A stretch of 64,000 nucleotides of DNA from Candidatus Zixiibacteriota bacterium (GTDB lineage Bacteria; Zixibacteria; MSB-5A5; UM-FILTER-46-8). A program made the translations under genes and the position numbers. The stretch spans positions 510 to 64,509 of the forward strand of contig JALSTH010000040.1 in NCBI GenBank assembly GCA_026983835.1, in the 5' to 3' direction. The notes under the pieces were generated by a model. That model ran no database searches. It was not told the origin of the DNA and saw nothing but the letters and a program-made list of their open reading frames with translations. Below, piece after piece: positions 5,147 through 63,184 of this stretch (the first letter of the stretch is position 1; the number at the start of each line of letters is the position of its first letter).

Positions 5147-7873
5147 TTGTTTCCTGATTTTAGAATCCATTTCAATCTATCAATAAGGTTTAATCAAATG
5201 TTTAATCCCCCTCCAAATAGCGATTTTCCTTACCGAAGACTGTATTCCACTTTCATTGTAATTATCCTTTTTCTTATTTTAACGGTTATACAGGTTTATG
5301 CGGCGAAATATCCCCACATTCGCACAGCCGCCTTAACCTACTCGCTAACCGATTCTATCGGAGCCGACTTTGTCGGCAGGCATTACGACTTGGCGATTAA
5401 TCCGGGCGGCTCCAATTATGATATTATCAAAAGCGTCGATCCGCAAACCAGATGCCTTCGCTATTTAACTATCTCCACCTACCGAGACGACGATTATCAA
5501 CTTCTGTCGACATTTTGCAATGAGCGGGGATATAATTACGACTCTATGTTTTTATGGGTGGAAAATAATACCGTCTGTGTGGAGGCGGTAGCTCCAGCCG
5601 GAGAGCCCTGCGAAGGCGATGTTTCCTGTTCGGATCCTGGGCAGAAGCTCCAGTATTGCGGGTGGAATTCTTTCCGTACCGCTCCAGATTTCCGCAGGCA
5701 GGAAGTATGGGAATTTGTTATCTATAAATATCTGAATTTAATCGGTTCTCAATTTGATGGAGCTATGGAGGATGAGGCAGTTTTCTATTATCATCCTCAA
5801 TGGAATTATTACAGTACTATGATGGTTTATCCGCTCTCGCCCTCCAAATGGGTCAGCGGTTCGTCAGCTGATATAAACGGCTGGGAAGGATATTCCCAAG
5901 ATGCCATACGGGATAGCTTAATGCACCTAAAACAGCAAACCTGGCTTCCTATGCTGATGGACTCCCTTCGAGCGCATAACAAACTTCGATTTGCCAATCC
6001 TGCAGCTTACGGTGTTTTGGGATCGGATGTTATAGAAGATGTTGCTTTGACGGGGACAGGCGACCTTTTGGGCGAAGGGATGCATCTCCGTCCATTGGGA
6101 GGCTATTGGAATAATCAGGCGTGGGATATAATGGAATACATAAGGAATACAGATGGTTATGCCATTGTTTGGACGGAGATCACTTCCGCAGATTCGGAAG
6201 CTTTAGGGAGTTGGGCGAGATGTCAGATGGAGCGGCTGGCATGGTATTATATGGTCGGCGATACTACTCACTTCTATTTCCTTTTGACCGGAAACGAACT
6301 TTGGCTCAGACCCAATGATTACCGCGCTCCCGATAGTTTGTATAAATGGGCGCCGGCTTTTGAATATGATATCGGACAGCCTGTTGGCTCTAAATATATT
6401 GCTCAAACGGGGACGGACCCCTCAGGGCAGTCTTACGAGATTTACGCCCGGGTTTTCACCAACGGTCTTGTTCTCCATAGGGATGCAATGGGATCCGATT
6501 ACAGCGCCAATTCCGCCGTCTCCTGTAATTTAGGAGACCAATTCTATGAACTCCAAGCCGATGGCAGTTTGGGAGACATCGTAACCGTCTCGGTAATCAA
6601 AAACTGCGAAGGGAAAATATACATTCCGGTCAGCGGAAACTCCAACCACCCCCCTTCGGCTCCTGATCCGCTGCACCCCCAATATGGCGAGAATATCGAG
6701 GATACTCACCCGATACTGATAGTAGATAATAGTAGTGATGAGGATGGGGATGAATTGACATATAACTTTTATGTAGCATTGGACAGCGAATTCAATCAAA
6801 TAGTAGATTCCGAACAGGATATCCAGCAAGGTGACGACAGTACTTCCTGCCCTGTGCAGGTTGACCTTTCCTATGGAACCGATTATTATTGGCGCAGTTG
6901 TGCATTCGATGGTATCGACTATGGTGACTATTCACAAACGAGCTATTTTCATATTATTCAACCCAACACACCACCGCCGCCCCCCTTACCCTATATTCCA
7001 ATTGACGGTTCCACAGTCGATGTTACTAAGCCGACACTAAAGGGAATCTGCTCTCGGGACCCCGATGGCGATATTCTTTTTTACTTTTTCGAGATCTCAG
7101 CGGATAGTCAATTCACTGGTGAAGTGCTAAATGGGGATAGTATCAAAGCCGTCAATGGGCTGGTAGGATGGAATATTCCTATCGAGTTAAACAGAAATAC
7201 AACTTATTTTTGGCGGTGCAGGGCTTTTGACGGTACCGATTTCGGCGATTTTTCAAGCACTTCTAAATTCAAGGTGAACGGCTATTACACCCAGCTTGAT
7301 AGTGTTCACCTCAACAGCGCAGGTTCCCTTTCCCCGAAAACGATCTCACCGTCGAATGGAGCGGTGATAAACAATAATGCCCCGACATTGAGGATAATCA
7401 ATATTCCCGAAGCTCGGCGATATTATTTTCGGGTTGCTTTGGATACCGCCTTTGAAAAGACAATTGCCCAATCCCCGGCAATTCCCTCCGGGGATGATAA
7501 AATCACTGAATGGCCTATCGATAGATCGCTTCCTTCCGGCAAATTATATTATTGGCAGGCTAAGGCGGAAGATGGAGAATGGTCGGGCGATGACTCCTTC
7601 TTTGTTTCGATAGGGATACATATTTTCCCAAATCCCTTCAGGTCGAGCAAGGGACATAGGACAGTAACTTTCCGTAATATACCAAAAAACAGTCATCTGA
7701 AAATAGCAACCATATCCGGTAAAACAGTACGTGAATTCGACCGTCTTCCGGAAGGCGATTTCGTTTGGGATTTACGAAACGCTTCGGGGGATGTTTTGGC
7801 TCCCGGTGTTTATTTGTATCTTGTCGATTATCCGGGCGGTTCCGCTAAAGGTAAGTTGGTGATAATACGCTGA
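5147..7873 (+). CDS. Large secreted protein with three ~100-aa Ig/Fn3-like repeats and a T9SS/FlgD-like C-terminal domain
   Basis: N-terminal hydrophobic anchor/signal (FIVIILFLILTVIQVYA). Three repeats share Y[YF]W[RQ]..A.DG.D[YF][GS]D[YF]S. C-terminus FPNPF...GKTV...GDFVWDLRNASGDVLAPGVYLYLV...GKLVIIR. Confidence 0.55.
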   Translation: MFPDFRIHFNLSIRFNQMFNPPPNSDFPYRRLYSTFIVIILFLILTVIQVYAAKYPHIRTAALTYSLTDSIGADFVGRHYDLAINPGGSNYDIIKSVDPQTRCLRYLTISTYRDDDYQLLSTFCNERGYNYDSMFLWVENNTVCVEAVAPAGEPCEGDVSCSDPGQKLQYCGWNSFRTAPDFRRQEVWEFVIYKYLNLIGSQFDGAMEDEAVFYYHPQWNYYSTMMVYPLSPSKWVSGSSADINGWEGYSQDAIRDSLMHLKQQTWLPMLMDSLRAHNKLRFANPAAYGVLGSDVIEDVALTGTGDLLGEGMHLRPLGGYWNNQAWDIMEYIRNTDGYAIVWTEITSADSEALGSWARCQMERLAWYYMVGDTTHFYFLLTGNELWLRPNDYRAPDSLYKWAPAFEYDIGQPVGSKYIAQTGTDPSGQSYEIYARVFTNGLVLHRDAMGSDYSANSAVSCNLGDQFYELQADGSLGDIVTVSVIKNCEGKIYIPVSGNSNHPPSAPDPLHPQYGENIEDTHPILIVDNSSDEDGDELTYNFYVALDSEFNQIVDSEQDIQQGDDSTSCPVQVDLSYGTDYYWRSCAFDGIDYGDYSQTSYFHIIQPNTPPPPPLPYIPIDGSTVDVTKPTLKGICSRDPDGDILFYFFEISADSQFTGEVLNGDSIKAVNGLVGWNIPIELNRNTTYFWRCRAFDGTDFGDFSSTSKFKVNGYYTQLDSVHLNSAGSLSPKTISPSNGAVINNNAPTLRIINIPEARRYYFRVALDTAFEKTIAQSPAIPSGDDKITEWPIDRSLPSGKLYYWQAKAEDGEWSGDDSFFVSIGIHIFPNPFRSSKGHRTVTFRNIPKNSHLKIATISGKTVREFDRLPEGDFVWDLRNASGDVLAPGVYLYLVDYPGGSAKGKLVIIR

Positions 7874-7989: not shown

Positions 7990-9183
7990 ATGCCTAAAGA
8001 AATCGTATTAAAATATGATAGCGCATTAGATGACAAAGAGTTGCGTGCTATCAGATTATTTAACAAGCTATTCGATAAAAAAGAAATACAGTTAGGATAT
8101 GACAGCGATGAGGTAATTATTCTATTACAAGAGATCGATATTAACAAATTAAAAGAAATATCCTCTCATTTTTCCGGTTATACTGATAAGAAGATTTTCA
8201 AAGATGTTCTCCGCTCAATAGAACAGATAAAAAGTTATGGGATTAAAGGAAAGAAAAGAAACTATGTTGATTATAATAAGGAAAGAAAAGTAAAGGGCAG
8301 AAAGAGCAAGGAATTAATAAGACACCAATATTACTATACTCAAGGAAACACTTTCGCAAAAGATGAAAATAAATTCCCGGAGGAATATGAAAATAAAATT
8401 ATTGTTGGCGATAGCGAAAATATATTAAAGAATATACCCGATAACTCTGTCGATTTGGTTTTTACATCACCTCCATATAATTTCGGGCTTGATTATGCTC
8501 AAAATCAAGACGCACACTATTGGGAAGATTATTTTGCAAAGCTTTTTAAGGTTTTTAAAGAATGTATTAGAATTACAAAATATGGCGGGAGAATAATAAT
8601 AAATGTTCAGCCATTATTTTCGGATTATATACCAAGTCATCAAATAATAAGTAATTTTTTTATGAAAGAAAAACTTATTTGGAAAGGGGAAATTCTCTGG
8701 GAAAAAAACAATTATAACTGTAAATATACCGCTTGGGGAAGTTGGAAAAGTCCAAGTAATCCATATTTAAAATACACCTGGGAATTTATTGAAATATTTT
8801 GTAAAGGGGATTTAAAAAAGACTGGAATGAAAGAAAATATAGACATTTCCGCGGATGAATTTAAAAAATGGGTTGTAGCGAAATGGTCAATTGCTCCCGA
8901 AAGAAATATGAAAAAATATGGACATCCCGCAATGTTTCCCGAAGAATTAGTTGAGCGTGTTCTTAAACTGTTTAGTTATAAGGGAGACATCATATTAGAT
9001 CCATTTAACGGGGTAGGAACAACTACTGTTGTTGCAAAAAGATTAAAGCGGAAATATGTCGGGATAGACATATCGGAGAAATATTGTAAAATAGCAGAAA
9101 AAAGGATACGGGGTTTAAAAAATAAACTTGGGTTATTTGCAGATGGAATCCAAGTTAAAGATAAAAAATTGATGAGCTGGTAA
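7990..9183 (+). CDS. Solitary DNA methyltransferase (beta-class N4-cytosine/N6-adenine) with a lysine-rich ~130-aa N-terminal extension
   Basis: Motif IV DLVFTSPPYNFGLDY (SPPY) precedes motif I ILDPFNGVGTTTVVAKRL, the beta-class order. Strongly AT-rich relative to flanks. No adjacent restriction endonuclease ORF. Confidence 0.8.
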   Translation: MPKEIVLKYDSALDDKELRAIRLFNKLFDKKEIQLGYDSDEVIILLQEIDINKLKEISSHFSGYTDKKIFKDVLRSIEQIKSYGIKGKKRNYVDYNKERKVKGRKSKELIRHQYYYTQGNTFAKDENKFPEEYENKIIVGDSENILKNIPDNSVDLVFTSPPYNFGLDYAQNQDAHYWEDYFAKLFKVFKECIRITKYGGRIIINVQPLFSDYIPSHQIISNFFMKEKLIWKGEILWEKNNYNCKYTAWGSWKSPSNPYLKYTWEFIEIFCKGDLKKTGMKENIDISADEFKKWVVAKWSIAPERNMKKYGHPAMFPEELVERVLKLFSYKGDIILDPFNGVGTTTVVAKRLKRKYVGIDISEKYCKIAEKRIRGLKNKLGLFADGIQVKDKKLMSW

Positions 9184-51246: not shown

Positions 51247-53946
51247 ATGTCTGAAAAGTTAATTTTAGTTGATGGAACCGCCTTGGCGTATAGAAGTTAT
51301 TTTGCTTTTATGCGGCGGCATCTGATCTCCTCGAGGGGGGAGATCACCTCCACCTCCTTCGGCTTCATAAATTCAATTCTCAAACTCAAACGGATATATA
51401 ACCCCGATTACCTCGTAATATCCTTCGATTTGGGCGCGCCGACAATCCGTCATAGAATATATCCCGAATATAAATCCACCCGCGCCAAAATGCCCGATGA
51501 TATGGTCGAAACCCTCCCGAGATTATATCAGATTGCCGATGCTTTGAATTTGCCGGTAGTCGAGAGGGAAGGAGTCGAAGCGGATGATATTATCGGCACT
51601 TTGGCAGTTAAGGGTGCTGAAAAATGCTTTGGGGTTTATATCTATACGGGCGATAAGGATTTCTTCCAGTTGGTAAACAACAAAATAAACATAATTATCC
51701 CGGGTAGAAAAGGTGATGAGGATATTATCTTGGATCCCCAAGGCGTTAAAGCAAAATTCGGCGTTCCTCCCGATAAAGTGGTGGATGTTTTAGCGCTTAT
51801 GGGCGATTCCGCGGACAATATCCCCGGGGTGCCGGGTATCGGACCCAAAACGGCAATTCAATTGATCAATCAGTATGGCAGTTTCGACCATCTATTCGCC
51901 TCGATAAGTTCTCTGACGAAAAAGAGCCTCAAAGAGAAATTATCTGCAAACAGGGAACAAGCCGAACTCTCAAAACAACTCGTTATCATAAATACATCCA
52001 TCGATTTGCAGATCGATTGGGGCAAATTCAGGGTCTCCGAACCAAATCTCGATAAGCTATTGCCGTTGCTTAAGGAACTCGAATTTGAGAAACTGCTAGA
52101 TGAGTTTTCCCCGGGTGCCGCTTTGAGCGAAAAAAAAGCTAATGTAGATTATCGGTTGATTAAAAACATCGGGGAATTGAAGGAGCTTGCAAAGGAGCTG
52201 GAAAAGGCGGGACAATTTGCCATCGATACCGAAACGACCTCGCTTCAAGCACGAAAGGCTGAGTTAGTGGGAATCTCCATCTCCTATGAAAACGGGAAGG
52301 CGTATTATCTGCCCATGGGACATAACAACACGGACAAAAACCTCCCCCTTGCCGAAACCATTTCACTTATTGGAAAACTATGTAGGGATGATAAACTAAC
52401 TAAAATCGCCCAAAACCTAAAATATGACCTTCAGGTCCTTAAAAACTATAATTTGGACATTAGGGGACCGCAATTCGACACTATGCTCGCTTCCTATGTT
52501 CTCAATCCGTCGGCAAGACAGCATGGACTTTCCGCATTGGCGATGGAGTATCTCAATTATTCTATGCAGGGTATATCCGAATTAATCGGAAAGGGCAAGA
52601 AGCAGAAATCGTTTGCCGAGGTCCCTGTGGAGGATGCGGTTTTCTATTCCTGTGAGGATGCCGATATTACCCATCGTCTATATAATATCTTTAAAACAAA
52701 GTTGGCGGAGAATAAATTAGAGAAGGTCTTTTATGAAATCGAAATGCCTTTGGTGGAAGTATTACGGAGTATGGAGGAAGTCGGGATAAGGGTGGATAAA
52801 AACAAATTAAAAGAGATATCCAAACATCTTGCCGACGAGCTTGATAAATTAACCGCCGAGATCTACGAATACTCCGGATACGAATTTAACATAAATTCCC
52901 CGATACAGCTTCAAAAAGTGCTTTTCGATGATTTGAAACTGCCCTCAAAGGGTAAGACCGCCAAAAGGGCCGGACTTTCGACCGATGCTTCGGTTCTTGA
53001 GGAGCTTGCTGAAATCCATCCGCTTCCCAAATTGCTTTTGGAATATCGTGAATTGATGAAGGTGAAATCCACCTATTCCGATGCTTTGGTGGAGCTTATC
53101 GACCCCCAAACCGAGCGTATTCATACCAGTTTTAATCAGGCTGTTACCGCCACCGGAAGGTTGTCGTCCGCCAATCCCAACCTCCAAAACATCCCCGTAA
53201 GGACCGAGCTGGGCAGGGAAGTCAGGGAAGCTTTTATCCCCACCAATGAGGATTATACATTTCTGTCGGCGGATTATTCGCAAATCGAACTTCGGCTTGT
53301 GGCGCATATCGCTGATGATAAGGCGATGATAGAATCCTTTCTGCGTGATGAGGATATCCATACCCGAACGGCGGCGGAGGTTTTCGGGGTGGATATCGAG
53401 GATGTTACTCCGGATATGCGGCGTAAATCAAAGATAACCAATTTTTCCATAATCTATGGGGTTTCGCCCTATGGGTTGTCAAGACAGGCGGAGATGTCCG
53501 TACAGGAGTCGAAGCAGTTTATTGATATTTATTTTCGGCGGTATCCGGGTGTCAAAAAGTATATGGAGGAGATTGTGAAGTTCGCTGAGGAGAAGGGTTA
53601 TGTATCCACTATCTTTGGAAGGCGAAGATACATACCGGATATCAAATCGCGAAACCATCAAGTGCGCGAATTTGCCAAAAGGACAGCCATCAATACACCT
53701 ATACAGGGTTCGGCTGCCGATGTAATTAAATTAGCGATGATAAAAATATATAATGAGCTCTCCAGTCGAGGTTTCAAAAGTAAAATGGTGCTTCAGGTTC
53801 ACGATGAGCTTTTATTTGATGTCTATTTGGCGGAGCTTGGGGACATAAGGGAAATAATCAAAAACGGGATGGAAAATGTTATAGAGCTCAAGGTTCCTTT
53901 GAGGGTTGAAATCGGAATTGGCAAAAACTGGTTGGAGGCGCATTGA
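51247..53946 (+). CDS. polA: DNA polymerase I
   Basis: 5'-3' exonuclease N-terminus (LILVDGTALAYRSYFAF), 3'-5' exo region, polymerase motifs A/B/C (LSADYSQIELRLVAH, RRKSKITNFSIIYG, QVHDELLFD). Confidence 0.95.
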   Translation: MSEKLILVDGTALAYRSYFAFMRRHLISSRGEITSTSFGFINSILKLKRIYNPDYLVISFDLGAPTIRHRIYPEYKSTRAKMPDDMVETLPRLYQIADALNLPVVEREGVEADDIIGTLAVKGAEKCFGVYIYTGDKDFFQLVNNKINIIIPGRKGDEDIILDPQGVKAKFGVPPDKVVDVLALMGDSADNIPGVPGIGPKTAIQLINQYGSFDHLFASISSLTKKSLKEKLSANREQAELSKQLVIINTSIDLQIDWGKFRVSEPNLDKLLPLLKELEFEKLLDEFSPGAALSEKKANVDYRLIKNIGELKELAKELEKAGQFAIDTETTSLQARKAELVGISISYENGKAYYLPMGHNNTDKNLPLAETISLIGKLCRDDKLTKIAQNLKYDLQVLKNYNLDIRGPQFDTMLASYVLNPSARQHGLSALAMEYLNYSMQGISELIGKGKKQKSFAEVPVEDAVFYSCEDADITHRLYNIFKTKLAENKLEKVFYEIEMPLVEVLRSMEEVGIRVDKNKLKEISKHLADELDKLTAEIYEYSGYEFNINSPIQLQKVLFDDLKLPSKGKTAKRAGLSTDASVLEELAEIHPLPKLLLEYRELMKVKSTYSDALVELIDPQTERIHTSFNQAVTATGRLSSANPNLQNIPVRTELGREVREAFIPTNEDYTFLSADYSQIELRLVAHIADDKAMIESFLRDEDIHTRTAAEVFGVDIEDVTPDMRRKSKITNFSIIYGVSPYGLSRQAEMSVQESKQFIDIYFRRYPGVKKYMEEIVKFAEEKGYVSTIFGRRRYIPDIKSRNHQVREFAKRTAINTPIQGSAADVIKLAMIKIYNELSSRGFKSKMVLQVHDELLFDVYLAELGDIREIIKNGMENVIELKVPLRVEIGIGKNWLEAH

Positions 53947-53950
53947 TAAT

Positions 53951-54550
53951 ATGTCGGTTGTAGGTTTAACGGGCTCTCCGGGAGCGGGCAAAACAACGAT
54001 CGCCAATATATTCAAGGAGTTGGGGGCGGAGATTGTCTCTGCGGATGAAATCGGCAGGGAGGTGGTCGAATCCAATTCGGAAGTTTTGGAGGCGTTGATA
54101 AAAGCTTTTGGGAAAGACATTTTGGACGAGAGGGGAAATTTAAATCGCAGACAGTTGAGCGGAATTGTTTTTTCCTCCGATGATGCGCTTAAAAAACTAA
54201 ACCGAATAGTCCATCCCTCTTTGCTGATGGAATTAAAGCGGATAATCGATGAGCATCGCTTTGCAAAGGGGGAAAAATTGATGATTGTTGATGCGGCGTT
54301 GATTTATGAATGGGGGATTGCGGATTGGTTTGATGCGGTGATAGTTGTTTATGCTGACCTTTGGTTGCGGATAAAACGGTTGAAATCGCTGGGTTTAACC
54401 GAAAGTGAAGTGATGGGCAGAACCGATTCCCAACTGCCGCAGGAGGAGAAAATCCGTCGTTCCGACTACACGATAGAGAACAACGGATTGCTCAAAGATA
54501 TCCGCCCCGAAGTTGAAAAACTTTATCGTATTTTAATGCGCCCGAAATAG
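53951..54550 (+). CDS. coaE: Dephospho-CoA kinase
   Basis: MSVVGLTGSPGAGKTTIANIF P-loop. ATG 53951 is preferred over ORF start 53906, which overlaps polA. Confidence 0.85.
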   Translation: MSVVGLTGSPGAGKTTIANIFKELGAEIVSADEIGREVVESNSEVLEALIKAFGKDILDERGNLNRRQLSGIVFSSDDALKKLNRIVHPSLLMELKRIIDEHRFAKGEKLMIVDAALIYEWGIADWFDAVIVVYADLWLRIKRLKSLGLTESEVMGRTDSQLPQEEKIRRSDYTIENNGLLKDIRPEVEKLYRILMRPK

Positions 54551-54661
54551 CTGACTACAAATTTAGCGAGACTTATTAGCGGGAACCAAATGGGTGGATT
54601 ATGATGGGGAAATACTAATAGGGAAAACTGGGATGATAATTTCGATGGGGGGGAATAAAAC

Positions 54662-54690
54662 TTGCGAAAAGTTTTTGGGGTTGATATAAT
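54662..54690 (+). promoter_or_regulatory. Consensus-like sigma-70 promoter: TTGCGA – 17 bp – TATAAT
   Basis: Read from sequence: -35 at 54662-54667, 17-nt spacer, -10 TATAAT at 54685-54690, in the AT-rich intergenic region after coaE. Confidence 0.4.
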
Positions 54691-54722
54691 ATAATTTGAG
54701 AAATATTCAAATTGGCCTAATT

Positions 54723-54799
54723 AGAAGCACTTATAGAAATAGAAAGTACGAAGGAGCTAAAAACTGCTCTTGGGTTCGAGTCCCAGTTTCACTGCTTCT
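54723..54799 (+). ncRNA. tRNA-like element: 7-bp acceptor-like stem AGAAGCA/TGCTTCT enclosing a GGAGC hairpin and a canonical T-arm (TTGGG-TTCGAGT-CCCAG). It is not a canonical tRNA: no D-arm, and 6 extra nt sit between T-stem and acceptor.
   Basis: GGTTCGAGTCC T-loop motif and the exact 7-nt inverted repeat are read from sequence. Lies between the promoter at 54662-54690 and the hairpin terminator at 54856-54880. Confidence 0.35.
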
Positions 54800-54855
54800 T
54801 AATAAAGGGAATATTTCCGAATAAATTCTCGAAATGTTCATAAAAAAGCAGTATC

Positions 54856-54880
54856 CTTCGGATAAAATCCGAGATTTTTA
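54856..54880 (+). terminator. Small rho-independent terminator (CTTCGGA-taaaa-TCCGAG + ATTTTTA) upstream of the RloC-like gene
   Basis: 6-bp stem including a G·U pair, 5-nt loop, T-tract. Confidence 0.4.
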
Positions 54881-54936
54881 AGCAGGCTCTAATAGGATTA
54901 TATCGGAGGAGTTTAAAATTATTTAAGGTCAAAAAG

Positions 54937-57381
54937 ATGATAAAAAGAATTAAAAAAATTAAGGGAGTTGGAAGATTTTTGAATGTCGGCCATACGGAGC
55001 TTGGCCGATTAACCTTAATCTATGGCCCTAATTGTTATGGCAAGTCAACCCTTTCTGATATTTTCCGTTCAATAGCGAATAAAAATCAAGAGATTTTATC
55101 AAACAGATATTCTATTGTAAGAAATGGTGGCCCTATTGCCCAAGAAATATGTTTTAGCGTTAAAACTGATGTGGATCAGACAGAACAAGATATTTCTTGC
55201 GTTGACCGAAAGTGGAATACAGGAAGCTTCAATTACTCGATAGAAGTTTTTGACTCTCGGTTTATTGAGGATAATGTTTTTACCGGTTTAACAATTTCAA
55301 GGGACAATAAAAAAAACCTTACCAATTTGTTGATAGGTGAAAAAAGTGTTGAGATTGGCAAACAAATAGACTCTTTAAAAAATAAATCGCTTCACGAAAA
55401 GACAAAAGATATTGGCGAACTTGAGGATTCGCTCAAAAGAAATTTGGGAACTTTAAATTTAGGAATAAGTCTTGAAGACTTTATATCAGTCGAGAAGCCG
55501 GATGATATTGAAACGACTAAATCTAAATTAACTATGCTTCAAGAAAATCTGAAGAAAGTTATAAAATTAATTTCGGAAAAGAATAAGATTCTCGAACTCG
55601 ATGGACCATTAATACTTTCTATAGAAGATCCCGAGCCGACAATTAAAATTCTAAAAGATTCGCTGGAAAAAGGTTTTGAAGATATAAACGATACTGCATA
55701 TAAGCGAATGCGAGAACATATAGAACAACACTTCAAATCCCACGATGGCGAAGAAGAAGAGTGGATTGAAAAAGGGGTAAATGCCTATCTTAAACAAAAT
55801 AAAGATACAACCGTCTTAAATTGTCCGTTTTGTAGTCAATCTTTAGCTACAGTTGTTGATCTTATTGAGACATATAAAACAGTGTTCAGCGAGGAATATG
55901 AAAGCTTTTATAATGAAGCTCTTAGAATGCTGGACGATAAACATCAAGAATTCAATAAAATTATTAACAACATTAAATTAGTAGAAAATTCAGTAAATAA
56001 AAATTTGGCAATTTGCGGACGCTGGCAGGGTTATTTTACAGACGAGACCCAAAAACTCATTGAACAAATAGATAATTTCAGCAATAAAGTGAATAAATCC
56101 AAAAGCAACCTCGTAGGGCTAATGGAAGAAGTTTCCGGCAAATTTGGAGAACTTATCGGTGAAAAAAAGAAGAAGCCTTTTGTTTCTATTAAGGAATTTC
56201 CTACTGGCGATAAATTACTAACCACTTATCAGCAATTCGCAGAAATGGTAAATAAATACAATGAAGACGTAAAGTTACTTATTATAGAAATAAACACCCT
56301 TAAAACAAGGAGTCAGAATGACCAACTAGTAAAAGAGTCAGAAAACTTGAGCAATAAAATAGAGGACATAAAAACAAAAATAAAAAGATCCGAATTAGCG
56401 GCAGATATAGACAAATATCAACTTTTAAAAAGAGAGAAAGATAAAATAGAACAGGAAATTAAAAAATTGCAGGAAAAACTAGAGCAAGAAAATACAAAAT
56501 TCATTGAGCAATACTTTCAGGATACAACGCACATTTTTAATAGATTAGGCTCTATTGACTTTGAAATTCAGACAACTTATAGACGTTGGGGAGGTCAGCC
56601 GGTATATGAACCGACAATCAAATTTGCAAACGAAGAAATTACTTTTAATCGATTACCATTTATATTTAGTGATGCGGACAGGAGGGCTTTGGCATTTTCA
56701 ATTTTCATTTCAAAACTCAGAAATAAAAGTGAGGCTGAATTAAAAAATACCATCGTTTTTTTAGACGATCCAATAACCAGCTTTGACGACAATAGAATTT
56801 CACAGACCTTTATAGAGATTAAGAATCTTACAACATCTTGCCGCCAATTAATTATAGCTGCACATCACAGCAGATTTTTACTTGATACTTACGAGAAACT
56901 AAAAAGCCTTCCGAATCTGGATTTAAAATTTATTGAAATCAAAAGAGATGGTTTTGGTACCCTCTTTGGGTTGGTTAGTGATCCTAAAACTAGATTAGAC
57001 CCCCATGCTCAAGAAATAGAGAAGGTGGAAAGATTTATTAATGGCGATTCTGATGTAAACGCGTCGGACGTGCGTAGATCATTAAGACCAATACTAGAAA
57101 AAGAGATAGAGTGGAGGTTCAGAAGAGACTTAAAAGGAGTATCTTTTGAGGGGCTTGGCGATATTGTTACCAAACTGAAAGAAAAAAATTCAATAAGCGA
57201 GAAGATAGCAAGAAGGATTTACGACTTTAATGACGTACTTATAGATGACCATCACGAAACAACTTTAGATACGAATGAAGATACAAGAAATTTGTCTAGA
57301 GATATCATTGAATTTATTTTTAAAGAACTAATCCCTAATAGTAAGTCCTTGAATTCTGAATTTAAAAAACTTGATAAATAG
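54937..57381 (+). CDS. RloC-like (AAA_13 family) ABC-type ATPase with coiled-coil insert carrying a CxxC zinc-hook; candidate anticodon-nuclease/defence protein
   Basis: N-terminal IKKIKGVGRFLNVGHTELGRLTLIYGPNCYGKSTL (Walker A). Roughly 500-aa K/E-rich coiled coil containing LNCPFCSQSL. Distal signature-like FSDADRRALAFSIF, Walker B IVFLDDPITSFDDNR, H-loop IIAAHHSRF. About 160-aa C-terminal domain. The gene is very AT-rich. Confidence 0.6.
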   Translation: MIKRIKKIKGVGRFLNVGHTELGRLTLIYGPNCYGKSTLSDIFRSIANKNQEILSNRYSIVRNGGPIAQEICFSVKTDVDQTEQDISCVDRKWNTGSFNYSIEVFDSRFIEDNVFTGLTISRDNKKNLTNLLIGEKSVEIGKQIDSLKNKSLHEKTKDIGELEDSLKRNLGTLNLGISLEDFISVEKPDDIETTKSKLTMLQENLKKVIKLISEKNKILELDGPLILSIEDPEPTIKILKDSLEKGFEDINDTAYKRMREHIEQHFKSHDGEEEEWIEKGVNAYLKQNKDTTVLNCPFCSQSLATVVDLIETYKTVFSEEYESFYNEALRMLDDKHQEFNKIINNIKLVENSVNKNLAICGRWQGYFTDETQKLIEQIDNFSNKVNKSKSNLVGLMEEVSGKFGELIGEKKKKPFVSIKEFPTGDKLLTTYQQFAEMVNKYNEDVKLLIIEINTLKTRSQNDQLVKESENLSNKIEDIKTKIKRSELAADIDKYQLLKREKDKIEQEIKKLQEKLEQENTKFIEQYFQDTTHIFNRLGSIDFEIQTTYRRWGGQPVYEPTIKFANEEITFNRLPFIFSDADRRALAFSIFISKLRNKSEAELKNTIVFLDDPITSFDDNRISQTFIEIKNLTTSCRQLIIAAHHSRFLLDTYEKLKSLPNLDLKFIEIKRDGFGTLFGLVSDPKTRLDPHAQEIEKVERFINGDSDVNASDVRRSLRPILEKEIEWRFRRDLKGVSFEGLGDIVTKLKEKNSISEKIARRIYDFNDVLIDDHHETTLDTNEDTRNLSRDIIEFIFKELIPNSKSLNSEFKKLDK

Positions 57382-57542
57382 GGATTTTGGTGGATAATAA
57401 AACTAACTTTACCTACCGCCCTTTATTTTGTAGCCCGTCGCTTTCTGAAAAAATTTCGGTAAAGTTAGATAGCAGGTGGTGAGGATAATCCATCGCCTGT
57501 TGAGTCTTTAAAAAATTGGGTTTAATATTATATTCCCAGGGA

Positions 57543-58691
57543 TCATTCGGTAAATAAATCCAGGTACTCTTTTAATATGAACATTCTGTTTCGCGAAAAG
57601 CCAGTGTATTCTCTTAAAATATTAATCTCCACAAGATCCTTTATGAGAGAGTTTGCTGCTTTATAAGATACATCAAGAACATCCTGCGCCTGACGGACAC
57701 CGATAATAGGTTTCCCAAACATATATTCAAGAAGTCTATTGCCCGATTTCGCCCTTCTCCCCAGTTTTAATATCTCATTATCATATCTCCTTTTCAATTT
57801 GATAATATTCTCTAAAGTCATCTTGCCGTTTTCTACGGTTTCTATTATTACTGAAAGGAAAAATATTATCCACTGTTCAATATCATTTTTTAGCCGAACA
57901 GAGTTTAATATATCATAATAGGCGGCGCGGTGCTTCTCAAAAAAGTAGGAAATGTAAAGAGTAGGCTTTCGTAATAAACCATAATAAATCAATTGCAGAG
58001 TTATAAGCAACCGCCCTATCCTACCATTGCCGTCTAAAAAGGGATGTATCGTTTCAAATTGATAGTGAGTTAAAGCTACTTTTATAAGGTGCGGTATGCC
58101 AAGGGATTCATTGTGCCAAAATTTCTCCAAATCTTTTAAAAGGTTAGGCAATTCCCTATGATGAGGAGGAACGAAAGAAGCGTTGCGCAAATTTGATCCC
58201 CCAATCCAATTTTGACTTTTGCGGATTTCCCCCGGTTGCTTTTGCTGACCCCGTACCCCTGATAATAGAATTTTATGTGTCTCCCCTATCAATCGCATAC
58301 AGAGAGGTAATTCCTTAAGTTTATCAACCGCAAAATTAATTGCTTTTATGTAATTTTGAACTTCCTCCCAATCGTCTCTTATCTCCGGTTTTATTTCCTC
58401 CTTCGGGAGGACAGCTTCAGTTATATTGGTTTTCGTACCTTCGATTTTACTTGAGGTCGTAGCCTCTTTTATAATATGCATTTGAATAAAAAAATCGACA
58501 TCTGGGACAAGTAAAGAATAGGCATTTAATTCCCCTAAAAGCCTTGCAGCCTTTTCTAACAAAATATCTATATCGGCACTATGCCATTTGAACCTTTTAT
58601 TGACATAGTTTGGTGTGAAGCTTTTATATTCGGATTCTGTTGCCCTGAGCTGTTTTTCGTATTTGCCGGAAGCAAAATCCATTTCATCCAT
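57543..58691 (-). CDS. Fic-family protein (AMPylator-type), class II: N-terminal inhibitory motif present
   Basis: Canonical Fic motif [14 protein letters not shown] (HxFx[D/E]GNGRxxR). Upstream SSKIEG matches the [S/T]xxxE[G/N] inhibitory helix. Confidence 0.85.
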
Positions 58692-58884
58692 ATATTCTTA
58701 TCCTAATTAGATTATGCCGATAAAAAGTAAAATATAAAATTCCTTATGTTCATTTTAGCTCTAAAAGTAAAATAAGGCAAATTATATTTTACTTTTAGGT
58801 AAATATGGAAGATTTAACACCCCCTCGTTCTATAAATACTATAATAATTTTAGGAATATCTGTTTTCCATAATATTTCGTAAAG

Positions 58885-58912
58885 AAAGCGGCGGAAGAAT
58901 GTCCGCCGCTTT
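58885..58912 (-). terminator. Rho-independent terminator (AAAGCGGCGG-aagaatgt-CCGCCGCTTT) downstream of the minus-strand FG-GAP gene; A/T-flanked, possibly bidirectional
   Basis: 10-bp perfect stem read from sequence, 35 nt past the stop of the 58947-60947 gene. Confidence 0.6.
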
Positions 58913-58946
58913 AATATGTTCGTTTCAGCAATACTTAATAATTATG

Positions 58947-60947
58947 CTATTTCACCAGCGTCATCTTCTTAATCGATGTCTTGCCTAAATTGGTGAGTTT
59001 TGCGTAATATATTCCGCTCGGCATATCCGCGGCATTCCATCTTATACTGTGCGTTCCCGCCGACAAATAACCATCAACCAGCTTCGCCACCTCCCGCCCG
59101 GCGATATTATAAACCGTCAAGTCAACCTCTCCCCCATAAACCAAAGAAAAGTTGATATTGGTCGCCGCATTGAAAGGATTCGGATAATTGCCGTGCAAAG
59201 CAAACTCGACAGGATGCGAAGCGTTGGAATTATCATCGGGGAGCTTGATATCGTGATTCTCGTTCCATTTATCGAGACCGACCACATCCCAATCGGCGGA
59301 GTTTCCACCCGCACCTTCAATTACCGTGAACGGAAACGATGCCGAGCTGATTACGCTGTCGGGATAATCCCCACAATAAGCGATATAATTATAGTCGCCC
59401 AACGGTGCATAACCCGGAATATGTTGGGTCATAGCAGCTGTCAAGGTATCGTGAGGGAGCATAATTATATGATCCATTTCCTGAATCGGACCATAAATTC
59501 CATAATCGGGGACATCGAGCATAATCCACACATCGGTAACCTGAACATCAGCCGTGTTGTTGATAAGCACGCCTGTGTATTGGAAACTACCGCCCGGCGT
59601 GACTACAACGGGGTCTTCGGCAGGTATCATATCGATGTAGATATCCGGCATAGAACCGCCCGATATGGCGAACATCTTGCCACCGCTGGAGAGATATTGA
59701 GTGCCGGCGATAATATCACAGTTCCCATCGCCATCCAGATCGCCCGCCGCCCGAACCGTTTTCAGACGGTTTCCGGTATTGTACTGCCACAATATCGAGC
59801 CATCGGAACCATCGCAGAGATAAACATTATAATCGAAACTCCCACCGACAACCTCATCGATACCATCCTGCGTGACATCGGGAACATTATCGATAGTCCA
59901 GACATCACCGCCGTTTAAATCCCCCACAGTTGTGCTCCAATTGACCGCTCCGGTGGCGCCATCAAGGGAGATGATACGATTATCCCAACTGGCAACCAAC
60001 GCCTCCGGAATACCATCGCCGTTCTGATCGCCGCCGACTTTAACCTCCATCACGCTTGTGCCGATATTCGATTGCCAAATAAGGTCTCCATTTGCCGCCG
60101 ATAAGCAGTAAACATTTTCGGACCACGAACCGGCTAAAACATCCTGCAATCCATCGCCGTCCACATCGACGAAACCTTCGACATCCCAAACTGATTGGCC
60201 TGTATGGTATTCCCAAATCAAAGTACCGGTAGCACCATCAACGCAAATTACTCTATCTTCATACGGATCGCCGGCGCCGATAATTGCCTCCGGGGCATCA
60301 TCGTAGTTGATCGAGCCTATGGAAGAAACGGCGAAAACCGCATCATTTGCTTGGAATTTCCAAATCAGCGAACCGTCAACGCCTGACAGGGCTACCGCAG
60401 CATCTTGATAGGAACCAAAGCCAGCCAAGACATCAGGGATGCCATCGAAATTCAAATCGCCGGTCATATGTATTGAATAGCACCAACCACTGGGTTCGTG
60501 GACATAAGTATCGTAAACCCATTCGGTAGAGCCATCGGCGCCATTGATAAGGAAAGCACTTCTGCCACCCCAAGCGGTGCCTAATAAAACCTCATCGATT
60601 CCATCGCCATCATCGTCGGTATAGCGGGAAAGGCAGTCATCACCATAACCTCCCCCGGATGATACGCCACCTTGGGGTCCGGCAGACCAAAGGACGACAG
60701 GACTGCCGTTATTTCCGGGACCTGACAAACAAAACAGGTTATGATCGCCTTGATAAGCTGAATTACCCCAGATGCCGACTACATCGGGATGGGAATCGCC
60801 ATCGACATCGGAGAATCCCATCACGCAGACACAATGATCATCCGGACCTTGATAGGACCAGATAAGGTCGCCCGCTTGGTAAGCAAACGAGCTACCCGCA
60901 AAGAGCATTACCCCAAGGAGAACAACGCCAGTTAACATTTTTCGCAT
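58947..60947 (-). CDS. FG-GAP/beta-propeller repeat T9SS cargo protein
   Basis: Signal peptide. Repeated ...DVDGDG..D...G....-type FG-GAP/VCBS-like units. T9SS CTD GNYPNPFNAATNINFSL...GIYYAKLTNLGKTSIKKMTLVK. Confidence 0.65.
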   Translation of the reverse strand: MRKMLTGVVLLGVMLFAGSSFAYQAGDLIWSYQGPDDHCVCVMGFSDVDGDSHPDVVGIWGNSAYQGDHNLFCLSGPGNNGSPVVLWSAGPQGGVSSGGGYGDDCLSRYTDDDGDGIDEVLLGTAWGGRSAFLINGADGSTEWVYDTYVHEPSGWCYSIHMTGDLNFDGIPDVLAGFGSYQDAAVALSGVDGSLIWKFQANDAVFAVSSIGSINYDDAPEAIIGAGDPYEDRVICVDGATGTLIWEYHTGQSVWDVEGFVDVDGDGLQDVLAGSWSENVYCLSAANGDLIWQSNIGTSVMEVKVGGDQNGDGIPEALVASWDNRIISLDGATGAVNWSTTVGDLNGGDVWTIDNVPDVTQDGIDEVVGGSFDYNVYLCDGSDGSILWQYNTGNRLKTVRAAGDLDGDGNCDIIAGTQYLSSGGKMFAISGGSMPDIYIDMIPAEDPVVVTPGGSFQYTGVLINNTADVQVTDVWIMLDVPDYGIYGPIQEMDHIIMLPHDTLTAAMTQHIPGYAPLGDYNYIAYCGDYPDSVISSASFPFTVIEGAGGNSADWDVVGLDKWNENHDIKLPDDNSNASHPVEFALHGNYPNPFNAATNINFSLVYGGEVDLTVYNIAGREVAKLVDGYLSAGTHSIRWNAADMPSGIYYAKLTNLGKTSIKKMTLVK

Positions 60948-61570: not shown

Positions 61571-63184
61571 ATGAAAAATTCTATCTGGAAAAAGGAGATT
61601 GTATTTTTAATCTTTTTGCTTATATTAATTTATGGGGTGGTGAATGCTACGCCCCTGATAGGGAGCTGCTATAAATCGGAATTTAGTCGGGATCATATAA
61701 TAAATACAGGCTATATTAATTTGACAGGGATAACTGATTTGAGATTCGGTATGCGATGGGGTGATATTGACGAGATAATCAATTCCGATTCTTTGGGTTA
61801 TTATCCGCCGAAGGATGTTTTTCAACCGCTGTTGGATTCTATCAATAAGTATGTCCCTTCGGATGTGGAATGCATATTTCAGTTGAAATTTTGGAACGCT
61901 TACAAGATGGCGGATCCGGATTCCACCGGGACTGCTTGGTGCAAGAAGGATGTTTACAAGGTGCATCCTGATTATGTTGAGGACTTCAAGGATATGTGTT
62001 ATGGTTTGGGAGTGGCATTAGGAGGGAGGGTAAATTATTTTGTTCTCCACAATCAGCCGAATGCTGGTTGGAATGAGGATGGGGGTGGGGTGTTTTGGCG
62101 TAATTCGCCGGAGGATTTTGCGTGGCAGTGCAAGATATGTGCGGAGCAGATAAAAGAAGGGAACCCCGATGCCTATGTGATATATGGTGGTTTCGGGGGG
62201 ACAAAGGTTGATAGCGGATTTATCCCTCGGGCGGTTAATGCTATAATGACTTACCAGACACCAAAGATCGATGCTGTGGATTTCCATTGGTACGATATTT
62301 TGCATTCGGCGGATACGATGAGATATATAGCTGAAAAGCTACACAATTTTACCGATTCCTATGACCTCGATTGGACAGTCCTTGAAACCAACGGTCCAAG
62401 AATCGTCTTCCCGTTGGATAGCATTCCCCAAGGCTGGGGTGAAAGCATAATCGATTCGCTCAACGATATAAGTCAAGGGCATGAAGAGCATATACTCGAT
62501 CATCTAAGGGATTGTTTATATGCTGGTACGCGTATCGTAGATCCCGCCAATTTGGGATTGCCGGAGAATTATAATATAGTTCAGCCTATAAAGGTTGATG
62601 AGTTTAACGGACGCGTTCCGATATTTATTGCTAATGGAGCGAAGATAGTTAATTGGTTCTCAGCTTACACCGCATTTGATGAACAATGGTTGTCGAACCT
62701 CGATGAAATCCCCTGTACGGATAACGAAATTATGTCCCAAGGTCCCGAAGGGAAAGTGGAGATGGTAATAAAATCCTGTCAGAACTGGCCATTGAATGTG
62801 GCTAAGGTTGATTTTGGTGTGTTTGGGAGCACTGATCTATCCGATAGGATGAAGGAATACATTGATTCATTAAATCTGCCGAAAATATCGCCGCCGGGGC
62901 AAAAGCAGATGGATATTAATTTAAGAGGGATTACATTATGTAGTTATCCTAACGCGTTTAATTCTTCTACTAAAATCTCTTATTATCTTCCTGAGGATAT
63001 GGAAGTAAAATTAGAGATGTTTGATATTCTTGCCAGAAAAGTCGACATACTCGATACAGGAATTAAGGGTAAGGGGCAACATACCGTCATTTGGGATGCA
63101 GGTAAATATGCCGGAGGCGTTTATTTTTGTAGGTTATCTACCAGCTTATGTTCAAAGGTAATTAAAATGACTTTGCTCAAGTGA
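61571..63184 (+). CDS. Secreted T9SS cargo protein with a putative glycoside-hydrolase-like (TIM-barrel) N-terminal domain
   Basis: Signal peptide. ...VLHNQPNAGWNEDGG... and ...WTVLETNGP... are candidate catalytic Glu regions; this assignment is weak. T9SS CTD SYPNAFNSSTKISYYL...GVYFCRLST...KMTLLK. Confidence 0.45.
   Translation: MKNSIWKKEIVFLIFLLILIYGVVNATPLIGSCYKSEFSRDHIINTGYINLTGITDLRFGMRWGDIDEIINSDSLGYYPPKDVFQPLLDSINKYVPSDVECIFQLKFWNAYKMADPDSTGTAWCKKDVYKVHPDYVEDFKDMCYGLGVALGGRVNYFVLHNQPNAGWNEDGGGVFWRNSPEDFAWQCKICAEQIKEGNPDAYVIYGGFGGTKVDSGFIPRAVNAIMTYQTPKIDAVDFHWYDILHSADTMRYIAEKLHNFTDSYDLDWTVLETNGPRIVFPLDSIPQGWGESIIDSLNDISQGHEEHILDHLRDCLYAGTRIVDPANLGLPENYNIVQPIKVDEFNGRVPIFIANGAKIVNWFSAYTAFDEQWLSNLDEIPCTDNEIMSQGPEGKVEMVIKSCQNWPLNVAKVDFGVFGSTDLSDRMKEYIDSLNLPKISPPGQKQMDINLRGITLCSYPNAFNSSTKISYYLPEDMEVKLEMFDILARKVDILDTGIKGKGQHTVIWDAGKYAGGVYFCRLSTSLCSKVIKMTLLK

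Follow-up and report, generated by a model that had tools for sequence, protein, structure and literature searches.

What is encoded by the small AT-rich patch that lies between the housekeeping genes polA–coaE and a cargo gene of the type IX secretion system (T9SS) in a Candidatus Zixiibacteriota bacterium, and how did it come to lie there? The patch measures 4.4 kb within a 64-kb window, which is the whole stretch of DNA analysed (64,000 nucleotides of contig JALSTH010000040.1), and it contains two convergent open reading frames (ORFs), one for an 814-aa RloC-like ATPase and the other for a Fic protein. An initial annotation, made by eye from the sequence, had described a horizontally acquired defence or toxin islet and had left undecided whether the C-terminal domain of the ATPase is an anticodon nuclease. 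The patch and its two genes are as follows.

54551–58946, the islet, between polA–coaE and the T9SS cargo gene; GC minimum of the whole window
54937–57381 (+), RloC-like gene, 814 aa; ABC ATPase of Rad50 type that bears a zinc hook and, at the C-terminus, a HEPN-like domain, a putative anticodon nuclease
57543–58691 (−), Fic gene, 382 aa; class II (SoFic-type) AMP transferase

The GC content of 54551–58946 is 0.340, as compared with 0.428 ± 0.019 in equal-sized windows elsewhere (z −4.7), in agreement with the AT-rich island that had been placed here. The GC content at third codon positions (GC3) is 0.291 for the RloC-like gene (z −4.1) and 0.360 for the Fic gene (z −2.5), versus 0.465 ± 0.042 for the other 38 genes; since both genes deviate in GC3, the effect lies at the codon level and not in amino-acid bias alone. 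Our analysis indicates that the patch is probably a small horizontally acquired defence islet with two independent, self-contained abortive-infection effectors, both directed against translation.

The RloC-like ATPase and its C-terminal domain

The motifs of the 814-aa protein and its C-terminal domain are located as follows.

55024–55050 (+), Walker A GPNCYGKST, residues 30–38
55822–55833 (+), CPFC zinc hook, residues 296–299, at a non-helical break between the helix arms
56665–56865 (+), distal ABC motifs: signature-like FSDADRRALA (residues 577–586), Walker B/D-loop IVFLDDPITSFD (605–617) and H-loop H643
56983–57345 (+), C-terminal helical domain, residues 683–803, about 130 aa; putative HEPN-type anticodon nuclease
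57085–57087, 57097–57099 and 57253–57255 (+), candidate catalytic residues R717, E721 and H773

From end to end, the protein matches model PDLC04895 of PADLOC PDC-S06 (E 3.4e-147, 490 bits; residues 1–801 on model positions 1–783 of 784) and the Pfam family AAA_13 over residues 20–671 (E 2e-28), whereas the PADLOC matches to LmuB (E 1e-10) and PrrC (E 4e-8) are weaker. As a full-length match to a single-gene system, it shows no sequence-level difference from PDC-S06. Fifty-three homologs were collected, and in an alignment of 30 sequences spanning 89% to 20% identity, residues G30, N32, G35 and K36 of Walker A, the hook residues C296 and C299, and S578, D610, D611, S615, D617, Q637 and H643 of the distal ABC motifs are invariant, which bears out the N-terminal Walker A, the CPFC and the distal ABC motifs first noted by eye. 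The Walker B core reads VFLDDP (residues 607–612), and the distal motifs align with LSEGEK, FIDDPISSLD and STHN of P0053, a Thermoanaerobacter protein with the annotation wobble nucleotide-excising tRNase, whose AAA_13 match covers positions 1–711 of 713. In BLASTP, residues 1–648 are colinear with P0053, including the hook (E 2e-21), and the close family members P0013, P0021 and P0037 carry the same annotation at the Joint Genome Institute (JGI).

In the full-length AlphaFold model (mean predicted local distance difference test score, pLDDT, 82), ABC lobe I (residues 1–113) and ABC lobe II (542–680) are separated by a helical insert of about 415 aa (122–536), the two arms of which (122–284 and 303–536) are connected by the CPFC segment. 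The model suggests a long antiparallel coiled coil that splits the ATPase head and carries CPFC at its tip, where zinc binding is predicted; the coiled coil and the hook of the initial annotation thus stand, and its length of about 500 aa has to be shortened. The best match of the model in the PDB is Rad50 (E 8e-12), followed by SMC heads, JetC, MukB and Lamassu LmuB, and a sequence-profile search of solved structures likewise ranks Rad50 first and returned only Rad50 and ABC heads; a phmmer search found no solved structure of a relative. Taken together, the sequence motifs and the predicted fold support an RloC-like architecture.

Our comparison with RloC of Geobacillus kaustophilus (Davidov & Kaufmann 2008; Klaiman et al. 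2012) reveals that both proteins share the size (814 aa, in a family range of 658–897), a Walker A motif at the extreme N-terminus, the distal signature, Walker B and H-loop, a coiled-coil insert with a CX2C hook at almost the same place (C296/C299, compared with C291 of the G. kaustophilus protein; PMC2610378) and a C-proximal Arg-X3-Glu-X(36-52)-His pattern, and that the window copy, too, has no adjacent restriction–modification (R-M) partner. By comparison, PrrC from the EcoprrI type Ic R-M locus of E. coli shares the ABC ATPase and a C-terminal Arg/Glu/His nuclease-type domain, and the likeness extends to the weak PADLOC match and to the position of one family member, P0043, in an hsdM-hsdS-gene-hsdR arrangement. 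PrrC is, however, about 400 aa long, lacks a coiled-coil/zinc-hook insert and is always R-M-linked, whereas the window protein has 814 aa, a 415-aa helical insert and no adjacent R-M partner. An assignment to PrrC was ruled out by the insert, the length, the missing R-M neighbour and the weak, partial PrrC match. Lamassu (LmuB), SbcCD and Rad50–Mre11 were rejected as well: the LmuB match is weak, the neighbours are coaE and Fic, no LmuA, SbcD or Mre11 partner is present, and the window protein differs from these systems in carrying a C-terminal domain of its own.

This C-terminal domain had been estimated at about 160 aa; it is indeed present, in a shorter form of about 130 aa. The founding RloC paper defined the nuclease motif as Arg-X3-Glu-X36-52-His, corresponding to R692, E696 and H737 of the Geobacillus enzyme, each of which is essential (PMC2610378). 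The His of the RloC catalytic triad is often preceded by Ser. The spacing R717-X3-E721-X51-H773 falls within the published pattern; no residue of the domain other than R717 and H773 is invariant in the C-domain alignments A3 and A4, and these two are nearly invariant in the 30-sequence alignment. An AlphaFold model of residues 672–814 (pLDDT 82) forms a helical bundle in which R717 and E721 are located in one long helix and H773 at a helix end entering a loop. This placement corresponds to the one reported for HEPN RNases, a group in which both PrrC and RloC have been placed (PMC3710099). The Foldseek matches of the domain in the PDB at ranks 1–14 are all HEPN toxins (HepT 5yep/6m6w/7bxo, 1wwp and 7ae8).

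The connection to canonical RloC was examined with 150 representatives, collected out of 4801 sequences at E ≤ 1e-3, and with a canonical profile of 91 sequences. The C-terminal signature derived from canonical RloC consists of SEY, N647, R650, E654 and S689-H690. In hhalign, R717 is aligned to R650 and E721 to E654 (P 0.016), a score that is reached by 1 of 200 column shuffles. The full-length hidden Markov model (HMM) of canonical RloC continues colinearly into the C-domain of family members: its NilRrfLE is aligned with high posterior probability to KILRPFLE of P0039, R-x3-E being found in P0038 as well, and its ySH is aligned to DSH in P0043 and P0044. In P0043, AAA_13 extends to profile position 692. 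The C-domains of the members that bridge to the canonical HMM score 118–152 bits with the window-family profile and are unambiguously homologous. In addition, a Psychrobacter plasmid protein that aligns end to end with the 814-aa protein (E 7e-57) has P-S-H at the His position, and with SEY in P0049 and S-H in P0043 and the Psychrobacter protein, intermediates grade into the canonical motifs.

Several observations weigh against the assignment of the domain as an RloC-type nuclease. AAA_13 stops at residue 671 (profile position 598 of 713) and leaves the C-terminal domain uncovered, and the PADLOC PrrC match stops at residue 722 and lies mostly in the ATPase. The fourth residue after the Arg is Gln rather than Glu in many of the closest homologs, and the window protein has His-His where Ser-His is usual. 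The Foldseek scores are weak (E 0.03–1; template-modelling score, TM, 0.42–0.46). Direct comparison of the family C-domain with P0053 in hhalign was insignificant (E 0.17) and out of register, a reversed-profile control scores as high as the match to the canonical profile, and HMMER stepping stones restricted to the C-domain are insignificant on their own (15 bits or less) and do not bridge the families. PDC-S06, moreover, is a computational candidate that the searched literature names only in lists, with no functional test. The domain thus differs from that of canonical RloC in having no detectable sequence similarity, the His-His pair, and neither the SEY nor the N-x2-R context. The homology of the C-domain to canonical RloC is accordingly bridged only transitively, with no direct significant match. 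On motif-level, positional, weak structural and transitive grounds, the domain is very probably the form that the RloC/PrrC HEPN nuclease takes in this family. The question left undecided by eye can therefore be answered with a qualified yes, for which the motif, the weak HEPN fold and the transitive alignment speak, and against which the direct profile comparisons stand. Because neither AAA_13 nor direct profile comparison recognises the nuclease domain of this PDC-S06 subfamily, the tRNase label depends on three motif residues and a weakly matching fold, which calls for caution in annotation.

An active HEPN RNase of this kind might have a substrate other than anticodons, such as mRNA or rRNA, and combine RloC-like regulation with a different target. 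HEPN RNases have diverse targets (PMC3710099), and the C-domain forms a sequence family of its own that lacks the canonical SEY, N-x2-R and Ser-His. The domain order, the size and the triad spacing are, however, the same as in RloC and PrrC, and the gradation into canonical motifs through P0049, P0043 and the Psychrobacter protein argues for a common target; we consider the different substrate rather unlikely.

As to the reading of the protein as an RloC-like anticodon nuclease, its control can be pictured from Geobacillus RloC, in which an internal switch is built from the zinc hook and a DNA-dependent ATPase; the nuclease is set free by mutations in the hook or by DNA together with ATP, and the tRNA wobble nucleotide is excised (PMC2610378, PMC3458546). 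By analogy, the window nuclease would be held off by its zinc hook/ATPase switch. During infection, the head would bind DNA ends and hydrolyse ATP, the nuclease would be released, and cleavage of tRNA anticodon loops would stop translation. We infer the nuclease activity, the tRNA target and the DNA-triggered switch from this analogy.

Horizontal origin and the neighbourhoods of relatives

The PolA protein of the host is placed within Zixibacteria, and its nearest relatives are only 68% identical in protein. By comparison, the RloC-like protein is 82–89% identical to proteins from Omnitrophica, Elusimicrobiota and Moranbacteria metagenome-assembled genomes (MAGs) and 70% identical to a Ratteibacteria copy, a Moranbacteria MAG being represented in the protein cluster at 89%; at the DNA level, the gene is 85–86% identical to the Omnitrophica and Elusimicrobiota copies, and its synonymous divergence (dS) from relatives is only 0.43–0.53. 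Horizontal acquisition of the RloC-like gene is strongly supported by these sequence comparisons, because the cross-phylum DNA identity of 85–86% contrasts with the 68% protein identity of host PolA. The proposed horizontal origin of the islet thus holds, in line with the foreign GC3. In the two nearest Zixibacteria relatives, the FtsK...PolA-CoaE synteny is shared, divergence sets in right after coaE, and both islet genes are absent, so that the insertion point coincides with the synteny breakpoint just after coaE; these relatives are too divergent (68% PolA identity) and differ from each other in their right flanks, which limits the empty-site comparison to gene absence and the synteny break. 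No relative was found in viral contigs.

The borders of the transferred segment lie close to those of the gene. Homology to loci L002, L003 and L004 in blastn begins at 54902–54906, 31–35 nt before the ATG, and ends near 57340. In the homologs, a methylase gene overlaps the start of the RloC-like gene by 17 nt, and the bases upstream of the window gene align to the 3' end of this methylase gene; the window therefore keeps a methylase remnant.

54902–54936 (+), 35 nt left over from a methyltransferase gene of Eco57I/MmeI type (type IIG-like), namely from its 3' end (alignment A5)

AAGG, a ribosome-binding site 9 nt ahead of the ATG of the RloC-like gene, falls within this remnant. At the other end, residues 804–814 form a low-confidence tail that is unrelated to the homologs, because the homology of the cassette ends inside the last codons, at a 3' recombination breakpoint. 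The RloC-like gene thus moved as a gene-sized cassette with breakpoints at gene borders. No R-M genes adjoin it in the window, and tblastn found no remnants of an HKD-Snf2 gene, a methylase gene or other neighbour genes elsewhere in the window below E 0.03.

Contexts of RloC-like family members were examined at nine distinct loci, the window included. In four of the nine, the gene follows a gene for an HKD (phospholipase D, PLD)-Snf2 protein (PADLOC C3a139, DrmD-like) and a type IIG/PglX-like methylase gene. In one (P0043), it is placed within hsdM-hsdS-gene-hsdR, as is known for prrC, and in another it trails a type I R-M system with Abi_C; one copy is solo beside toxin–antitoxin genes, one is on a short contig (L011), and the window copy is solo. 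R-M genes are therefore immediately adjacent in six of the nine contexts, often with overlapping reading frames, and in this respect the close relatives of the window gene, which are habitually R-M-linked, differ from canonical rloC, which is rarely so. Other neighbours of the relatives encode a caspase-like protease, toxin–antitoxin proteins, Schlafen-like ATPases and Fic, including a SoFic-type Fic located 3.8 kb downstream of the 82%-identical RloC-like gene in the Elusimicrobiota MAG. Distant plasmid homologs are solo; 20 of 39 reside on predicted conjugative plasmids, and one lies near traE. A scan of genome contigs with a narrower alignment yielded only four loci.

The two-gene module upstream of close homologs (L002:1450-8017, L004:1-7098 and L007:1669-8017) encodes an HKD(PLD)-Snf2 protein, about 1070 aa long, together with a type IIG/PglX-like methylase that has about 1050–1100 aa, and has the look of a restriction system split into helicase-nuclease and methylase. 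In L002, the module adjoins a serine recombinase gene, a terminase-like gene and a ParB-methylase gene, i.e., it is situated inside a mobile element. In the Elusimicrobiota defence island L004, genes for Schlafen/AlbA_2-type ATPases (L004:2380-3756 and L004:12684-14099) flank the RloC-like gene; these ATPases are weakly similar to pAgo-associated proteins, and an unannotated 245-aa gene lies between the methylase gene and the RloC-like gene.

Comparison of the window with these loci indicates that its RloC-like copy descends from an R-M-linked ancestor and that the partner has been lost here. The ratio of nonsynonymous to synonymous divergence (dN/dS) is 0.17–0.20 for the window copy versus its relatives and 0.18–0.21 among linked copies, and for the C-domain it is 0.18–0.37 in the orphan as in the linked copies. 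These equal ratios indicate that the orphan RloC-like gene is not decaying and is under purifying selection. Internal control has been argued to account for RloC's lateral transfer in the absence of an external silencer (PMC3458546). An orphaned yet selected copy fits this idea, and it provides, together with its R-M-linked relatives, a natural linked-versus-orphan pair for testing it.

It is possible, though we hold it to be unlikely, that the subfamily is a PrrC/RloC hybrid that joins the zinc-hook architecture to restriction-partner wiring, with a HEPN domain perhaps directed at another RNA and with the window copy placed in a two-effector module with the SoFic-type protein. If so, the gene would have been cut loose as a bare cassette that crosses phyla and stays selected without its partner, and tRNA and EF-Tu would be hit in parallel by a self-sufficient two-effector translation-shutdown module.

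The frequent R-M linkage can also be read differently, with the 814-aa protein as a Rad50/SMC-like ATPase and its C-domain as a regulatory or partner-binding module for the adjacent R-M enzyme, so that the orphan would have no effector of its own. The six R-M-adjacent contexts with their overlapping frames, the Gln in place of the triad Glu in many close homologs, the absence of significant direct similarity between the C-domain and canonical RloC, and the stop of AAA_13 before this domain would all agree with such a role. Against it, the Arg and the His stay invariant, with the spacing that has been published, even in members of only about 20% identity, HEPN RNases match the fold, if weakly, and the canonical HMM aligns R-x3-E and S-H to columns of the family. 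Solo copies occur on plasmids and in MAGs, and the purifying selection on the orphan equals that on the linked copies, the C-domain included. A purely regulatory C-domain is thus distinctly unlikely.

The Fic gene and its promoter repeats

The features of the convergent Fic gene and its upstream region are as follows.

58437–58454 (−), inhibitory helix SSKIEG (S80-x3-E84-G85), residues 80–85
58011–58046 (−), Fic active site, residues 216–227, which fits HxFx(D/E)GNGRxxR
58723–58734 (−), 58763–58774 (−) and 58785–58796 (+), three exact copies of the operator-like repeat TATTTTACTTTT

The 382-aa protein matches the Pfam families Fic_N (E 2e-21) and Fic (E 4e-19) and the PADLOC SoFic model at positions 5–359 of 361 (E 9e-113). 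At its C-terminus, HTH_13 is matched at E 2.5e-4, below the Pfam cutoff, in a region resembling a winged helix-turn-helix (wHTH). The solved SoFic structures 9tcl and 3eqx (E ~3e-30) are aligned over residues 46–381, with S80-SKI-E84-G85 set against SSEIEN of the solved SoFic. A Fic protein is of class II if its own chain carries the inhibitory (S/T)xxxE(G/N) motif on the N-terminal side of the Fic core (PMC12249575). The motif of the window protein is N-terminal to its core, which makes it class II by the published definition, and the convergent Fic gene with an N-terminal SSKIEG, as first annotated, can be specified as SoFic-type. The protein shares with SoFic of Shewanella oneidensis and of E. 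coli H397 the order of Fic_N, Fic and a putative C-terminal wHTH-like region, the inhibitory S-x3-E-G motif, the HPFxxGNGRxxR active site, the full-length PADLOC match, and an AT-rich promoter region with repeats, consistent with binding to its own promoter. It differs in being distant from the tested proteins and in that no AS1-like small gene downstream is supported.

SoFic is reported to AMPylate EF-Tu within switch I and to bind the first 100 bp 5' of its own start codon (2026 preprint 10.64898/2026.07.09.737422). In the window, the three copies of TATTTTACTTTT sit 32–105 nt upstream of the Fic ATG, and no further exact copy exists in the 64 kb. Two of the copies pair up as an inverted repeat, perfect over 14 nt, whose arms are 10 nt apart. 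Matches with one mismatch number 8, versus 1.65 expected, and none of 100 shuffles reaches 8. By analogy with SoFic, the repeats are probably a candidate operator for the putative Fic wHTH, through which the C-terminal region would autoregulate the gene. AMPylation would be restrained by the N-terminal inhibitory helix of the protein itself, and upon release the Fic protein may add, via EF-Tu, a second translation block that is independent of the RloC-like nuclease. The EF-Tu target, the operator function and the anti-phage activity of the islet are what we infer from the tested relatives. For one E. coli SoFic homolog, a 47-aa antitoxin is encoded downstream. A search for an AS1-like antitoxin downstream of the window gene returned only a 26-aa ORF (57413–57493, −), which is not conserved at the loci of homologs and was rejected; downstream of Fic, the closest homologs have no conserved small ORF.

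The closest relative of the window Fic is 69% identical in protein and is encoded between mod and res of a type III R-M operon (L024:1345-7115, also L025 and L026; MTase_III E 1.5e-203 and REase_III E 2.9e-128 in L024). Since the best Fic relative reaches only 69%, as compared with 86% DNA identity for the RloC-like gene, the acquisition of the two genes probably dates to separate times.

Two findings in this section tell against the picture of a SoFic-type effector paired with the RloC-like protein. The NCBIfam SoFic equivalog score is 162 bits versus a cutoff of 550, which excludes orthology between the window Fic and the tested SoFic proteins, and there is no sign that the RloC-like and Fic genes cooperate; their divergence from relatives differs greatly (86% in DNA versus 69% in protein at best).

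RloC-like ABC-HEPN genes in mobile neighbourhoods with R-M and Fic/Doc genes have been described before and were read as a three-level defence at DNA, RNA and protein (Anantharaman et al. 2013, PMC3710099). The islet shares with these neighbourhoods an RloC-like ABC-HEPN gene beside a Fic/Doc gene in a compositionally foreign mobile patch. It differs in that the R-M layer is absent, with only the 35-nt methylase remnant being left. This published pairing, the R-M operon relatives with the partner missing here, and the probably separate acquisition of the two genes lay beyond what could be seen by eye.

That pairing, the adjacency in the window and the second SoFic-type Fic 3.8 kb downstream in the Elusimicrobiota MAG could suggest that the convergent genes form one unit, either toxin/antidote or sensor/effector, for example with Fic restraining the RloC-like protein in place of the R-M silencer. 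However, Fic is nearby in only two of the nine contexts, and identity between the Fic proteins of these two is just 29%; the genes converge, each from its own promoter, and the cassette breakpoints exclude Fic. Furthermore, the closest Fic relatives occur without an RloC-like gene, and SoFic and RloC have been described as single-gene, self-regulated systems (PMC12249575; PMC3458546), which renders a joint unit very unlikely. The remaining alternative, a conjugation or plasmid-maintenance AAA_13 subgroup that has no defence role and owes its low GC to a Lys/Glu/Asn-rich coiled coil, could appeal to the distant plasmid homologs (20 of 39 predicted conjugative, one near traE), and is largely refuted, to the point of being hardly credible, by the GC3 of 0.29 (z −4.1), the best match to a defence-candidate HMM, the R-M and defence neighbours of the relatives, the absence of transfer genes near the window copy, and the conserved catalytic-type motif in the C-terminal domain.

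With regard to the two-effector islet favoured here, both genes are of catalogued kinds and their co-occurrence is already published (PMC3710099); the current understanding of defence systems is unchanged. It is a well-delimited example of two catalogued defence genes from the uncultivated phylum Zixibacteria. The additions are modest: a cross-phylum cassette with a methylase remnant, an HKD-Snf2/type IIG-like partner among relatives, a divergent nuclease domain and a triple repeat in the Fic promoter.

Borders of the islet and other features of the window

The flanks, spacers and putative signals of the islet are as follows.

53906–54550, coaE, left flank; last gene of the conserved FtsK...BamD-NadD-PolA-CoaE block
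54551–54901, AT-rich spacer, from the coaE stop to the start of cassette homology; GC 0.347
54662–54690, sigma-70-like promoter candidate in this spacer, TTGCGA-17-TATAAT with upstream TG
54857–54873, weak hairpin followed by a T-run; −6.8 kcal/mol, z −2.2
57382–57542, spacer of 161 nt between the convergent 3' ends
58881–58912 (−), intrinsic terminator of the T9SS cargo gene, 11-bp GC-rich stem and UUUCUUU; right islet edge
58947–60947 (−), beta-propeller protein gene with a T9SS sorting domain (Por_Secre_tail), right flank

The right edge of the islet is marked by the terminator at 58881–58912, which lies 38 nt past the T9SS gene and has a folding energy of −19.3 kcal/mol (z −5.7), a stability that none of 200 shuffles attains; the consensus terminator scan had missed it. 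In a scan for promoters and terminators, counts were not above those of shuffles. The spacer 54551–54901 shows no similarity to the loci of relatives, and the spacer 57382–57542 contains no significant structure that would act as a bidirectional terminator (folds at z 0.0 and −0.3). Flanking repeats, which the initial annotation had proposed to look for, yielded none of significance: candidates for att sites or target duplications were limited to short, imperfect pairs about as frequent as chance would give, namely a 17-nt direct pair (14/17) at 54646/57388, with about 2 expected by chance (an estimate), and an inverted repeat of 16 nt at 54794/57419.

Upstream of the RloC-like gene, a T-arm-like 17-mer, TTGGG-TTCGAGT-CCCAG, is found at 54770–54786 (+). 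Against Rfam, this element reaches only the tmRNA 3' end, at E 0.87, and its fold is insignificant; no exact match of a 23-mer from it occurs in metagenome contigs, and ARAGORN found no tRNA or tmRNA in the window or the related loci. As an unproven lead, the element could be the footprint of an old tRNA/tmRNA integration site.

A second foreign patch is located at 7990–9183 (+), with a gene whose GC3 (0.27, z −4.6) is below that of every other gene in the window and which encodes a 397-aa type II-class N6/N4 DNA methyltransferase (Pfam N6_N4_Mtase E 6e-43; PADLOC MTase_II E 4e-72). No restriction enzyme was recognised beside it, and the upstream ORF of 908 aa (5147–7873, +) is without a Pfam or PADLOC match. 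Beyond the T9SS cargo gene, a 537-aa ORF (61571–63184, +) matches no Pfam family at E ≤ 0.001, and tblastn links its C-terminus to T9SS-sorted proteins in a related Zixibacteria genome (E 1e-11).

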